This document shows, in pieces, positions 18,895-61,400 of a stretch of DNA of 64,000 nt. The stretch lies in IMG/VR virus record IMGVR_UViG_3300035520_000308, one strand, 5' to 3'. Each line of letters starts with the position of its first letter. Position 1 is the stretch's first letter. The position numbers and the translations under genes were made by a program. A model generated the notes under the pieces. That model was not told the DNA's origin and ran no database searches. It worked only from the letters and a program-made list of their open reading frames with translations. This DNA comes from an uncultured virus (IMG/VR IMGVR_UViG_3300035520_000308). Taxonomy: Duplodnaviria; Heunggongvirae; Uroviricota; Caudoviricetes.

Positions 18895-19539
18895 TTACAC
18901 CGCCTTTACTTCTGAAACATGGTATCTTCCATAACCGCTTGACCTACCGCTGCCAATTCCAAGTCCAAATCCTGCAAGATTAATAATGTTCATAATCTGT
19001 TCTGCACTATACACATTTTCCATATAAGAAACTGTAAATGTAGCACTCCAACCGCAAAACCTATTGAGATATACCAATACCGGACTTCCCTTTTTAGGGG
19101 ACATAAGTTTTTCATCTATAAAATGTTGTGTAAAAATAACAGGAACTAAGTCCTCAACAACATTCACACTTGCATCAATCTTTACCTTATACTTGTCAAT
19201 CTCATTTCTGACAACTGCATCACCAAATGACTTTTTAAGTCCGAATCCAGTAACGCAAGGTGCATTTTCCTTTAATGCCTGTTCCAATCCTTTTTCTGAA
19301 AAATCTGTAGGTTTCCCGTTCTTCCAGTGCATAGAAGTAATAATGCCCTCCCATACATTAGGTTTGGTTGTGTCCTTTGCTTTGTCCTTGCGTTTGTCAA
19401 TCAGTTCTTTTGCATTGATGTCATTCATCTTGTTAAGAACTAAATCTCCGTCACCTACGATTGTTACTTGCATATACTGTACTGCAAGCGGTTTTAATTC
19501 AATTACCTGTTCATTTTTTTGCTTTTTAGCTGTTCCCAT
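18895..19539 (-). CDS. RAMP/Cas7-like RNA-binding protein (putative guide-RNA effector, Vipr-like)
   Basis: First strand VTIVGDGDLV, helix GLKKSF, F.GW.ATF strand, C-terminal G-rich loop LAGFGLGIGSGRSSGYGRY typical of RAMPs; directly downstream of the pentamer array. Confidence 0.75.
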   Translation of the reverse strand: MGTAKKQKNEQVIELKPLAVQYMQVTIVGDGDLVLNKMNDINAKELIDKRKDKAKDTTKPNVWEGIITSMHWKNGKPTDFSEKGLEQALKENAPCVTGFGLKKSFGDAVVRNEIDKYKVKIDASVNVVEDLVPVIFTQHFIDEKLMSPKKGSPVLVYLNRFCGWSATFTVSYMENVYSAEQIMNIINLAGFGLGIGSGRSSGYGRYHVSEVKAV

Positions 19540-19577
19540 TTTAAAATCCTCCTTAAAATTTGATTTTTATTTCCACA

Positions 19578-20173
19578 TCTACCGCTTTGTCCGTGACATA
19601 ACAACTTGATATATTCTGTTCTATCCTGCGTTTTCGTTTTCTATATTGCTCTGTCCTGTTCAATCGTTTAGTATGGTTAGTGGCTATGCCACCGATAAAA
19701 CGGTAGAGTATGGTATTCTGTGCTATGGCTTGCTGTCCTGTTATAAATTAAACTGTATTAAAGTGTGTTATCTGCCTTGATAGGCATTGGGCTGACCTTA
19801 AAGTTTTGCAATATTTTGTTCTGTGTTGTCATGTTTTGTATTGTATTGTTACGTTGTATCATGCGTTATACTTTGTCAACTTTAAAGTCAACCGAATACC
19901 TACCAAAATTGCCCCATAATTCGTGAGTAAAGTGTTTTATGTTTTATTGTCTTGTTATGTATTTTTTTGTAATGTCCTATGATATCGTGTCTTTGGCAAG
20001 CTTTACTCACCAACTATGAAGCAATCGTCACTTGCATAAATATCGACTTTAGCAGTAAAAATAAAATTATGTTCTTTTTTATATTGTGATGTCGTGTTTT
20101 ATAGTTTCGTGTTCTATAGTGTTGTGTATTATTCTGTAATTACCGACCTAAAGCCGATATCTATACAAGTGAC
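19578..20173 (-). ncRNA. Array of five putative guide RNAs: (NN-AYA)12-14 pentamer tracts, four enclosed by unique long stems
   Basis: Period-5 tracts at 19612-19676, 19709-19773, 19807-19876, 19933-19997 and 20070-20139; inverted arms 19578-19602/19683-19707, 19777-19805/19878-19906, 19908-19932/20001-20025 and 20027-20052/20148-20173; most mismatches are G-U on the minus strand. Confidence 0.85.
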
Positions 20174-20190
20174 TAGCAGATATTAAATTG

Positions 20191-20619
20191 TCAAAGTGCC
20201 TCTATTTCTGAAAAAATCTTTTCAAGCTCTATAAGGTTTTCATATCTTCGCTTGAAAGCCTGCAATTCCATTTTCGCCCGCTTTAACAATGATTGATATT
20301 CATCCTCATTCTTAAGAATCATTGTGACAGGCTCATAAACCGATGTTGTCGTAGTAATCTGAAATACTCTTGTTGGCTCACTTTTTTCCTCAATCGGAGT
20401 AAACACAAACATTTGTATCATTTCTCTCGCTTGTATGTTCCTGTATTTATCTCCTGCTATCGTATCATTCCATTCAAAATCATTGTGTATGACCGAGTTT
20501 TTATCTCTTGCCAACTCCACAACGTTCTGCGGTGTAATGCTTTCAAGTTTGGATATTTCCTCATAGGCTTTATTTGCATCAGCCTTATATTTTGGGATTT
20601 TCCATGATACTTTTTCCAC
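20191..20619 (-). CDS. Conserved phage protein upstream of the array (putative accessory protein)
   Basis: ITPQNVVELAR..NSVIHNDFEWND..AG.KYR..QAR motif; stop codon about 17 nt before the first stem. Confidence 0.7.
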   Translation of the reverse strand: MEKVSWKIPKYKADANKAYEEISKLESITPQNVVELARDKNSVIHNDFEWNDTIAGDKYRNIQAREMIQMFVFTPIEEKSEPTRVFQITTTTSVYEPVTMILKNEDEYQSLLKRAKMELQAFKRRYENLIELEKIFSEIEAL

Positions 20620-56843: not shown

Positions 56844-57728
56844 TTATGCAATGTCATTCTCAAATTCAATGCCATATTCTCTGCACTTTTCGACTAACTC
56901 ATCAAGGCTCTTTCTTCCAAGATTTCTAATTTGCATAAGTTGGCTTAAACTGTAATCTTCAAGTTGGCGCGATTGAGTAATTCCTGCGCGCTTAAGGCAA
57001 TTATATGCTCTTACGGATAAATTCATCTCCTCGATATATACGTTAGGGATAGGTACATCAAAACCGTCTTTGTTTAATTTTGCTATTTCTGCAAGTTTTT
57101 CTGTGCGTTCTTTTATGTCTTTTAATCTATTTGCGCTTTTTACCGTTTCTGCACACCTTTTCCGATATTCTTCCTCGGCTCTTTTAATCTTTTCTTGATA
57201 AGCCTTTTGCTCATCAATGATTTGTTGATACTTTTCAAGATATTCCTTGCCGATTGTAAATATTTTCACTCTGTTTGGGTGACGCAATTTTCTATGTGCC
57301 TTATGTTCAACTTGTCGTATTCTCTCTCTTGTGACATTAAAAATCTTTCCAATTTCCTCATACGTCATACCGTCTTCAAATCGGTAGCGGACTATCTTTG
57401 ATTCTCTGTCCGTAAGAGTTTGCAATGCAAATTCATAGCACTCGTCAAAATCAGATGCATATGCAACTTTGCCATCAAATACAGTATTTAAAAACTTCTC
57501 TTTCCAGTCGTATTCGATTTCAACATCTGCAACTGGAATATCCTCTTTGTACGCCCATTCTCTACGCACAAACTCTCTAAACTTGTCTGAGTTAATATTT
57601 TCCAATCTACAAGCTGATTGTTCACTTTCTCCACTCTCAACATGTTCAACGATATTCAACATACGAGTAAGGATATCTTTTGCGTTTGCATAAATCTCTT
57701 TCTTTTGCACTTTTTGCTTTCCTGCCAT
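56844..57728 (-). CDS. Sigma70 region 4 fused to RNA polymerase alpha-CTD-like domain
   Basis: [49 protein letters not shown]...[11 protein letters not shown]. Confidence 0.85.
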
Positions 57729-58812: not shown

Positions 58813-58931
58813 ACCTCCTGTGTTGATATTAAATGCCCACGCATATTTCCTGTGAATTATAAAAACAACGGACAGGCAATCACAGGTTTTGCTTTTCGCC
58901 CCGTCGGGCTATTCCGTTGGTTTTACCAATT

Positions 58932-59537: not shown

Positions 59538-59690
59538 TTGCTATGGTTGGGACTTGCACCCAACAATGTAGTTTTGATACGCAAGAAAAGTTTTGTGTGT
59601 TTCCTCCTACTCACTGGCTCATCAATATTGCACTACTTCAATTCTCTGTAACAACGTATCAAATAGCGTCTTATTCCGCCACATAGCAAT
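59538..59690 (-). ncRNA. tRNA-like element with greatly expanded anticodon domain
   Basis: GCTATG/CATAGC acceptor, GCGGAATAAGACGC D-arm, TTTGATACG/CGTATCAAA stem, TTGGG-TGCAAGT-CCCAA T-arm. Confidence 0.5.
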
Positions 59691-60078
59691 TTGATGAATG
59701 AGGTTTCCAACTGGAAAGTTTTTTAAATAGCACTTATTACCCGTGACCATCTCGACCTCGCGCAACCAGTTGACATTATTTTTGGTTTTAGCAGCCTTAA
59801 CCTCAAAAGTACGCTGCCATTTGATGAAATTTTTGATTATCTGGACTATCAGATAATCATTTCCGAACTCTCACCCAGCAAACTTTATAGTCAAAGAGTA
59901 ATGCTAGTTACGTGAGATTATTCATCAAAATCATGGTATGTTTCTTATACAACCCATGCATTAATTCTGTCTACCACATACCAGCCAAACAAAATCTTTT
60001 ACGGAGCTGAAAAGAATAAAAAACAAATTTCTGTAATGCAGAAATTAGATTCCTTTTCTACACTTGGTAGATAGGGAA

Positions 60079-60153
60079 TGCGCATAATGAGAATCGAACT
60101 CATGCTTCCAAACGCTGCCTCATAGAGGCGGACAGAATTACTGCCGTATGCGC
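60079..60153 (-). ncRNA. Degenerate tRNA-like element
   Basis: GCGCATA/TATGCGC-A acceptor, TGAG-TTCGATT-CTCA T-arm. Confidence 0.5.
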
Positions 60154-60230
60154 GCCAATCAATTTTGAAAGGAATTTAAATGAAAAAATGTTTGCCCTCT
60201 GACACTGCGCGGGGTTTTGACAGTATCAGA

Positions 60231-60326
60231 TAGTTGCGGTTTGGATTTGCACCAAACAATTTGAGGATGTGAATCACTTTCTCAAGGCTCTTCAACATTT
60301 GTGTTTACCTTTTCCACCACGCAACT
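60231..60326 (-). ncRNA. Degenerate tRNA-like element
   Basis: AGTTGCG/CGCAACT acceptor, GTGGAAAAGGTAAACAC D-arm, TTTGG-TGCAAAT-CCAAA T-arm. Confidence 0.5.
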
Positions 60327-60724
60327 ATTTTGTCCATTTTATGACTATGTGGATGCATAGGATTTAACTGTCTCAGAGGAGTATCCGCCGGTGCTACCGA
60401 CTTGCAGGAATCAAACCGCCCGCCCAAGCTATAAGGACTAGACCACTATGTTTGCTCTTGCCAGTTTTACAGTTTACTCTGTTTGACAGCTATGCGCTCT
60501 GCCAAAGCGTGATAATCCATTCTGATTATACAATCTGTCTGTGATATCACTCACCGACTTTGAAATGGATTACTTCTTAGGTGATTATACGTTTGTCATA
60601 CGGATTTTAACGTCTTTTTCTGACGGTTTGTGGTATATTATTCCGTGACGTCTTTGGATAACATCCTCTTCCGACGGACAACTAGCACTCATCCCCATTA
60701 ATATACAGGAATGACCGTCAGAAA

Positions 60725-60787
60725 TGGCAATCCGGAGAATTGAACTCCGGTCCTATGAGTTATCATCGCGCCCATACACCAATTGCC
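60725..60787 (-). ncRNA. Short tRNA-like element
   Basis: GGCAAT/ATTGCC-A acceptor, CGGAG-TTCAATT-CTCCG T-arm. Confidence 0.5.
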
Positions 60788-61400
60788 ACTAAAAATGATT
60801 AAAAAGGAGGTCCGCCAAATAATAAAATTTATCTGAACGAATAGTCATTATGGAGCTTGAATCCATCATGACCTTTTGGCTATTTCTTCTTCTCCTTGTA
60901 CCCGCTTGCGTATATTGCCCTTGCCTGTTTCTCGGCTTGACTTTTTGTCTTATATGTCTTTCCGGTATTTCCAAACTTGTAACCGGATTTTGTTTTATGT
61001 ACTGGCATTTCTCATCACCTCCGTGTAGTTATCATGTAAGGCTTATTTATATTGTTCCAATATAGAAATATTATAGTTTATATGAGTTATGTATTAATAT
61101 TGGATGTGTTAATGGAGTATTTATATATTATAATAAGCCTCTTTTTGTTTTTGAGAAAATTTAAGGCACTAACTAGGCGCGATTTTCGGCACTCGGAAAA
61201 CCCCTGTACCGGTCATCTGCGCCGGCATCTGTCCCCATGCTCCGTTCCATTGTTGAATTGTGTGAATTTTAATTCAATTCACCTCATATGCCGCCTATAT
61301 AGCGGTTAAACAATAATTTATCTGCTAAAACCATGATGTGAAATCACTACAACCCTTGATTTTGCTGGGGTTTGAATTGTGTCTAAATTGTACATGGCAT

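Follow-up and report, generated by a model that had tools for sequence, protein, structure and literature searches.

The systems closest to the locus reported here are the VIPR (Viral Interference Programmable Repeat) systems, a mechanism class published in 2026. Beside the two VIPR preprints cited below, a third 2026 bioRxiv preprint on these systems reportedly concerns satellite competition. A VIPR system is described as a RAMP protein of about 20 kDa, Vipr, together with vrRNAs of 9–16 YNNGG pentamers, the NN dinucleotides of which pair with DNA by a "1-nt skip rule" that places the skipped base on the codon wobble; the natural targets are competing phages and satellites, matched on both strands, and anti-phage repression is reported (bioRxiv 10.64898/2026.04.26.720920). 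The same source allows for "related" repeat consensus forms, with NNNGG, YNNNG, and NNNNG as alternatives, and for RNA architectures that vary between types, which are numbered I–VII. In VIPR systems, the vrRNAs are expressed at about 100 nt and co-purify with Vipr, and the accessory vap gene codes for a DNA-binding or nuclease fold. In the cryo-EM structure of the SUSP1 system, there is one protomer per repeat and a gapped R-loop, the GGY trinucleotide is flipped into pockets (G1 contacted by H17 and D177, G2 by R138 and W178, and Y3 by R179 among others), and NN pairs with the target while the skip base is extruded (bioRxiv 10.64898/2026.04.26.720927). According to these two preprints, VIPR shares with Class 1 CRISPR systems the use of one protomer per guide segment and a thumb that interrupts the guide-target duplex at regular intervals (bioRxiv 10.64898/2026.04.26.720920, 10.64898/2026.04.26.720927). 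A screen with a genomic language model has added 21 clusters with non-canonical trinucleotides, for example GAC, CAC, WGT, and TGH (bioRxiv 10.64898/2026.10.21.760802).

Organization of the array locus

The window, i.e., the whole stretch of DNA analyzed here, is 64,000 nucleotides long. Its region 19540–20190, taken with the two minus-strand genes that flank it, is most probably a VIPR locus of a temperate Clostridia-type phage (probability about 0.88), an assignment that follows from a homologue of Vipr, the protein by which these systems are defined, together with a pentamer RNA locus and skip-rule matches to other phages. The order of the locus is candidate vap (142 aa), four vrRNAs, and vipr (214 aa), with the following features.

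18895..19539, minus strand: vipr gene, 214 aa, encoding a RAMP-fold protein homologous to SUSP1 Vipr (family profile, AF2 model, Foldseek)
19578..19707, minus strand: vrRNA hairpin U1 ("Guide A"), stem 19578–19606 / 19679–19707 (inverted repeat I2 and unit table)
19681–19607, minus strand: U1 tract of 14 (+1) pentamers, with the 14-unit core at 19612..19681
19708..19776, minus strand: U2–U1 linker, a short degenerate pentamer-like run with a sequence partly conserved in relatives
19777..19906, minus strand: vrRNA hairpin U2, stem 19777–19805 / 19878–19906 (inverted repeat I1, MFE fold); loop of 14 pentamers, about 19807–19876
19908..20025, minus strand: vrRNA hairpin U3, stem 19908–19932 / 20001–20025 (inverted repeat I4, MFE fold); loop of 13 pentamers, about 19933–19997
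20027..20173, minus strand: vrRNA hairpin U4, 26-bp stem 20027–20052 / 20148–20173 (inverted repeat I3, pentamer phase, MFE fold); loop of about 15 NN-AYA pentamers, tract about 20070–20144
20191..20619, minus strand: 142-aa gene next to the array on its upstream side, candidate accessory gene (vap) by synteny

The array occupies the 650-bp intergenic gap between the 142-aa and 214-aa genes (19540–20190), abutting the stop codon of the upstream gene on one side and the ribosome-binding site of vipr on the other. It contains four inverted repeats with arms of 25–29 nt enclosing 68–95 nt, and all four loops share, on the minus strand, the same 5-nt period of a dinucleotide (NN) plus a spacer, with 13–16 pentamers each. 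In a scan of both strands of the 64-kb window, pentamer tracts of 15–20 units occurred only in the 19,540–20,190 region and six tracts of 8–10 units lay outside the array; block-shuffled copies of one strand gave 0–5 tracts per copy. Searches for known elements returned no Rfam family between 18500 and 21000 at E-values up to 1 and no blastn match of the locus in the GenBank phage collection. The MFE prediction also pairs the sequence 5′ of U4 (20176–20183) with GGCAGATA located 3′ of U2, in the 5′ part of the linker, and this predicted pairing would enclose U4 through U2 in one multi-branch structure.

The 142-aa gene belongs to PHROG 15946, a family of unknown function, and 78 of the 80 related Vipr loci have a homologue in the upstream position with the same orientation. 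The protein has no match in Pfam, NCBIfam, or PADLOC, no PDB sequence match, and no Foldseek match at E 0.001 or better; its AF2 model has a pLDDT of 81, and its best VIA Z-score of 4.2 covers the C-terminal helices only.

The Vipr homologue

The 214-aa protein has no family in Pfam, NCBIfam, or PADLOC, and its homology to Vipr was identified through a profile. A 75-sequence family profile matched the PDB entry 36pp_D ("SUSP1 Vipr protein") with an E-value of 2.8e-15 over residues 20–211 against 3–188, whereas the single 214-aa sequence reached only E 0.54. The AF2 model (pLDDT 96.7) has as its top Foldseek matches the Cas7-type subunits of Cmr and Csm complexes, at E 8e-7 to 1e-4. The family is large: of 2617 candidates, 2371 scored E 0.001 or better, one of them named from a Lachnospiraceae MAG, and there are 569 representative clusters.

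The G-loop (residues ~194–199) reads GIGSGR here and GVGDWR in SUSP1 Vipr in the HMMER alignment, in which S, G, and R stand opposite SUSP1 D177, W178, and R179, respectively; this residue-level correspondence comes from the pairwise alignment with its weak E-value, and the profile alignment supports the region. Two residues that contact guanines in SUSP1 are thus replaced by S and G, and RNA recognition must differ in detail from that of SUSP1. As read from the alignment, the change in the G-loop fits a spacer other than GGY. The broader family consensus keeps E-W-R at the G-loop positions in the profile alignment.

The RAMP fold (Foldseek E ~1e-6) is the likeness to the Class 1 CRISPR backbone, in which Cas7, Csm3, or Cmr4 assembles on crRNA. 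The two differ in period: VIPR has a guide period of 5 and a target period of 3, whereas both are 6 in Class 1 CRISPR. The locus described here is also phage-encoded and lacks a CRISPR array as well as cas genes and an adaptation module.

The U1 guide and its predicted target

The U1 pentamer consists of a variable dinucleotide followed by a 3-nt A-rich spacer with the consensus A-Y-A on the minus strand. The reverse complement of 19612–19681 reads ACTAA CCATA CTAAA CGATT GAACA GGACA GAGCA ATATA GAAAA CGAAA ACGCA GGATA GAACA GAATA, and a fifteenth unit, TA TCA, follows directly after unit 14 at 19611–19607. The preliminary description had read from this tract the series AC CC CT CG GA GG GA AT GA CG AC GG GA GA, which matches 19681–19612 on the minus strand exactly, and had proposed that every third base is skipped. 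The latter applies to the presumed target; the guide itself has a period of 5, with two variable bases and three of spacer. Read as codon positions 1 and 2, the NN series spells T-P-L-R-D-G-D-I-(D/E)-R..., which the preliminary description gives as a conserved motif of the DUF2815 (gp2.5-like) single-stranded DNA-binding protein (SSB) of Firmicute phages.

Units 2–10 of U1, written as codon positions 1 and 2, give the pattern CCNCTNCGNGANGGNGANATNGANCG, which matches at least 113 stretches in IMG/VR. Among the 113 matches listed, 111 have an open frame and the motif PLRDGD[IM][DE]R..D..Y..F.N, with the core K[TL]PLRDGDI[DE]R; the two exceptions are one truncated copy and one PAPS-reductase gene. 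When 42 of the matched ORFs were sent to Pfam, 41 were above the gathering threshold for PF10991 (Enc34_ssDNA-bd, formerly DUF2815) with E-values of 1e-67 to 1e-83, and the outlier was the PAPS reductase. As a control, reversing the order of the nine dinucleotides left 4 matching stretches, which belong to a single unrelated family. The motif is real, and the enrichment of in-frame DUF2815 matches that had been proposed as a check was found. Matches were also present in bacterial genomes: the 10-unit pattern, which includes the leading Thr codon, gave 59 exact contig matches in a one-genome-per-species collection, with the motif in frame in 57 of them. These contigs, presumably prophages, come mostly from Clostridia, including Acetatifactor and Butyrivibrio, which we take to be Lachnospiraceae genera.

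Over the full 15 units, the best targets of U1 match 27 of 30 NN bases (90%), compared with 19–22 for 10 shuffles, although units 11–15 match the DUF2815 consensus only in part. This best match lies above the cutoff of 80% of NN bases given for targets in the VIPR preprint (bioRxiv 10.64898/2026.04.26.720920). The natural matches follow the 1-nt skip with the skipped base on the codon wobble, and the in-frame matches support the proposal that the guide matches a conserved SSB motif of other phages or prophages while passing over the wobble base. The accompanying argument, that escape by synonymous mutation would fail, is the one made by the VIPR authors themselves (bioRxiv 10.64898/2026.04.26.720920). 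U1 is most probably a VIPR vrRNA, of the published mechanism class and with non-canonical features.

Related Vipr loci

The same arrangement was found in five close loci and in 80 further Vipr loci (56–86% identity). In a search that covered the A-Y-A pattern only, NN-AYA tracts were present in 73 of 81 sequences (the 80 loci and the window). All of them lay on the vipr-sense strand, a single locus carried as many as 13, and the totals were 359 tracts and 126 unique NN series. Across the 80 relatives, pentamer positions 3–5 are A (75%), C/T (81%), and A (89%), and positions 1 and 2 are near-uniform. The stem sequences are wholly different between subclades while their complementarity is kept: the true flanks fold with a median energy of −28.3 kcal/mol, and 88 of 145 reach −20 or lower, compared with −13.8 and 15 of 142 for permuted partners. 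Some relatives, on contigs of about 80 kb, have up to 13 tracts located on both sides of vipr, and some tracts are low-complexity "CA CA CA..." series, which may be degenerate or decoy guides. An SbcC-like ATPase is encoded in only 42 of the 80 loci, usually on the far side of vipr, and is probably a mere neighbor of the VIPR locus.

Some guides of the relatives match the same replication module. The comparison covered 255 kb around DUF2815 genes and 105 guides that had 12 or more units and 6 or more different dinucleotides. Eight of these guides reached an NN match of 80% or higher, compared with 0 of 315 shuffles, and in all 8 the first variable base (N1) falls on codon position 1. These 8 matches represent about 5 separate target sites. 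Read in frame, these guides yield conserved motifs, namely NGNKGIAAGLG of DUF2815, KPxGKPTLVPxSDKRPE of the upstream gene, KPTKxNGGRTRNLPE of a downstream gene, and ADFSAIEARVIAW, a motif in DUF2815-module DNA (PolA-like ADFSAIEARV). We take ADFSAIEARVIAW, or ADFSAIEARV, to be a PolA-type motif.

Strand of the guides and proposed mechanism

The vrRNAs are very probably transcribed from the minus strand, in the same sense as vipr. This reading is based on the asymmetry of G.U pairs, duplex energies, folds of whole regions, the tight spacing of the genes, and the lack of a terminator-like site on the minus strand in a scan of the array. In a strand-neutral, ungapped comparison of the transition mismatches in the stem arms of 56 hairpins, 188 would be G.U pairs on the vipr-sense strand and 45 on the other. 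Of 92 cases compared by duplex energy, 75 had the stronger stem on the sense strand, 16 had it on the antisense strand, and one was tied; whole-region folds showed a sense-favoring asymmetry in 4 of 5 loci. The promoter and terminator scan did not rise above shuffled sequence, with 10 promoter-like sites compared with a shuffle mean of 10.6. A look-up of sequencing runs for the locus listed no RNA run and one DNA run with 5% of the sampled words.

An alternative, which we consider unlikely, is plus-strand transcription of the guides as U-R-U/NN units, which would be complementary to the target mRNA and would operate either on RNA or on the coding strand of the DNA. All 8 above-threshold matches of the guides are in the coding sense of the target, and a single orientation would be natural for mRNA targeting; this bias is only suggestive, as no more than about 5 independent sites underlie the 8 matches. 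The plus-strand unit T-R-T/NN also resembles the published YNNNG, TGH/NN, and WGT/NN forms (bioRxiv 10.64898/2026.04.26.720920, 10.64898/2026.10.21.760802), and SUSP1 VIPR is described as forming a guide duplex with ssRNA in vitro (bioRxiv 10.64898/2026.04.26.720927). Against the plus strand stand the G.U asymmetry and the stem stabilities given above, as well as the position of the array, which is closely flanked by two minus-strand genes and has no terminator-like site on that strand. Moreover, SUSP1 vrRNA1 was cloned together with the vipr CDS (bioRxiv 10.64898/2026.04.26.720920); an outside promoter and a shared direction are our interpretation of the Methods.

Under the preferred minus-strand reading, U1 is of the same sense as the DUF2815 mRNA, and its expected pairing partner is the template strand of the DNA. 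We infer transcription, strand, assembly of a ribonucleoprotein, targeting of DNA rather than RNA, and repression, as follows. Most likely, transcription of the minus strand yields each vrRNA as a long hairpin with a 68–95-nt loop of 13–16 NN-A-Y-A pentamers. By analogy with the SUSP1 complex, one Vipr protomer would bind each pentamer, bury the constant trinucleotide, and present the NN. The NN pairs would then base-pair with DNA reading NNx NNx..., with every third target base flipped out. In this way, U1 may bind the template strand of the DUF2815 SSB gene in competing phages or prophages, and because its NN bases correspond to codon positions 1 and 2, it would bind whatever the synonymous codon usage. 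The expected effect would be the silencing of the replication module of competitors.

Guides U2–U4 and other possible functions

No convincing target was found for U2, U3, or U4 in exact 9-unit scans of IMG/VR and in the surroundings of DUF2815 genes, where no match above the shuffles was present within 1.5 kb on either side. The exact scans returned 6 (U2), 9 (U3), and 1 (U4) stretches with extension at chance level, and blocks with one mismatch would escape such scans. The U3 matches were rejected as targets: they all represent a single repeated sequence that has stops in frame. Of the six U2 matches, five lie at the C-terminus (VTCHYIIKWLD) of a single family of small proteins, and the 9-unit block of U2 corresponds to codon positions 1 and 2 of VTCHYIIKW in a small, apparently hydrophobic protein on 5 IMG/VR contigs. 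They give at most a putative target: the extension of the U2 matches beyond the forced 18 bases is at chance (20–23 of 28), and a control pattern also matched one family four times.

The missing external targets of U2–U4 would suit guides that regulate the phage's own genes or those of its host rather than competitors. This is very improbable for several reasons. There are no self-targets: the best match in the window covers 62–71% of NN bases for U1–U4, which is within the shuffle range. The gene matched by U1 is also absent, with no PF10991 gene among the 98 of 99 window ORFs scanned, in keeping with the earlier remark that the window holds no DUF2815 gene, and the U1 matches lie in other phages and prophages.

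TRAP-type ring proteins bind RNA triplets spaced by two variable nucleotides, and the loops could in principle be sites for a TRAP-like ring or filament protein that reads AYA, with the NN unconstrained and the DUF2815 match a coincidence. Unconstrained spacers would look much like those seen here, as NN is hypervariable between relatives and the AYA trinucleotide is conserved. Even so, only the slightest probability attaches to this explanation, given the at least 113 stretches, nearly all in frame, for U1 against 4 for the control, the 8 of 105 related guides that match the same module, always in codon register, against 0 of 315 shuffles, and the neighboring protein, which is a Vipr homologue. 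Compared with TRAP, the variable dinucleotides here carry the target information and the partner protein is a RAMP. A retron, DRT, or DGR template was rejected as no reverse-transcriptase family matched among the 98 ORFs scanned, and a replication origin or ssDNA hairpins and an Hfq- or TRAP-type protein sponge were dropped because Vipr homology and codon-register matches explain the data better.

Relationship to known VIPR types

The locus resembles the type II VIPR systems of Escherichia phage SUSP1 and a Pseudomonas fulva prophage in having a small RAMP-fold Vipr next to pentamer guides, guides of 9–16 pentamers with three constant and two hypervariable nucleotides, one skipped base on the wobble, targets in competing mobile elements without self-targets, and a minimal locus with one accessory gene (here a candidate). 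On the other hand, the constant trinucleotide is A-Y-A rather than the G-G-Y of type II, so that the canonical GGY/NN (YNNGG) consensus does not apply; the tract ends in a 25–29-bp closing stem, in contrast to the 3′ tail/pseudoknot of the SUSP1 clade; the targets found are all coding-sense; and the hosts are Clostridia phages. With the arrays of the language-model screen it shares a 5-nt period, a fixed trinucleotide other than GGY, and an adjoining Vipr-like fold (bioRxiv 10.64898/2026.10.21.760802). The text of the screen does not name AYA/NN, although the complement T-R-T may equal its "TGH" or "WGT", a comparison made with the text (bioRxiv 10.64898/2026.10.21.760802).

The Lachnospiraceae-phage clade could tentatively be regarded as a mechanistically distinct VIPR type, in which the guanine-binding residues are lost, AYA is read, guide loops are closed by stems, and the identifiable targets are all coding-sense and lie with the replication module (SSB, a PolA-like gene, and neighboring genes) of DUF2815-type phages, although this is less likely than not. 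If true, it would imply strand-specific action, such as a block on the template strand, or guides derived from mRNA-sense copies, neither of which has been described for the characterized type II systems. As judged from sequence, the non-contiguous VIPR code, so far experimental in E. coli and Pseudomonas systems, would extend to gut Clostridia phages. The guides of the clade appear to be directed against the best-conserved protein motifs within a replication module that is widespread (DUF2815 SSB and the PolA-like gene). The clade also offers a natural set of guides with another trinucleotide and matching changes in the Vipr G-loop, which may be useful for studying how Vipr reads the repeat and for obtaining orthogonal programmable DNA binders. 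Finally, the wobble-skipping code could be recovered by a reader from the raw sequence alone.

Phage context

The window represents a temperate siphovirus-type phage. It encodes a portal protein, terminase, holin, and amidase, and the minus-strand early operon includes an HTH regulator, a Bro/ORF6C antirepressor, a PF00436 SSB, RecT, and the SbcC-like ATPase. A region of about 1.2 kb (59615–60849) lacks ORFs of at least 50 codons as well as tRNAs and Rfam matches. The sole Rfam match in the whole window is an int-alpA RNA (RF02996) at 58849–58919 on the minus strand, with 52.5 bits compared with a gathering threshold of 35.8, and it adjoins a 350-aa ORF without a Pfam match. At 56844–57728, the minus strand encodes a 294-aa protein in which sigma-70 region 4 (E 1.5e-19) is joined to the C-terminal domain of RNA polymerase alpha (E 7e-21), a fusion that is unusual for a phage transcription factor.
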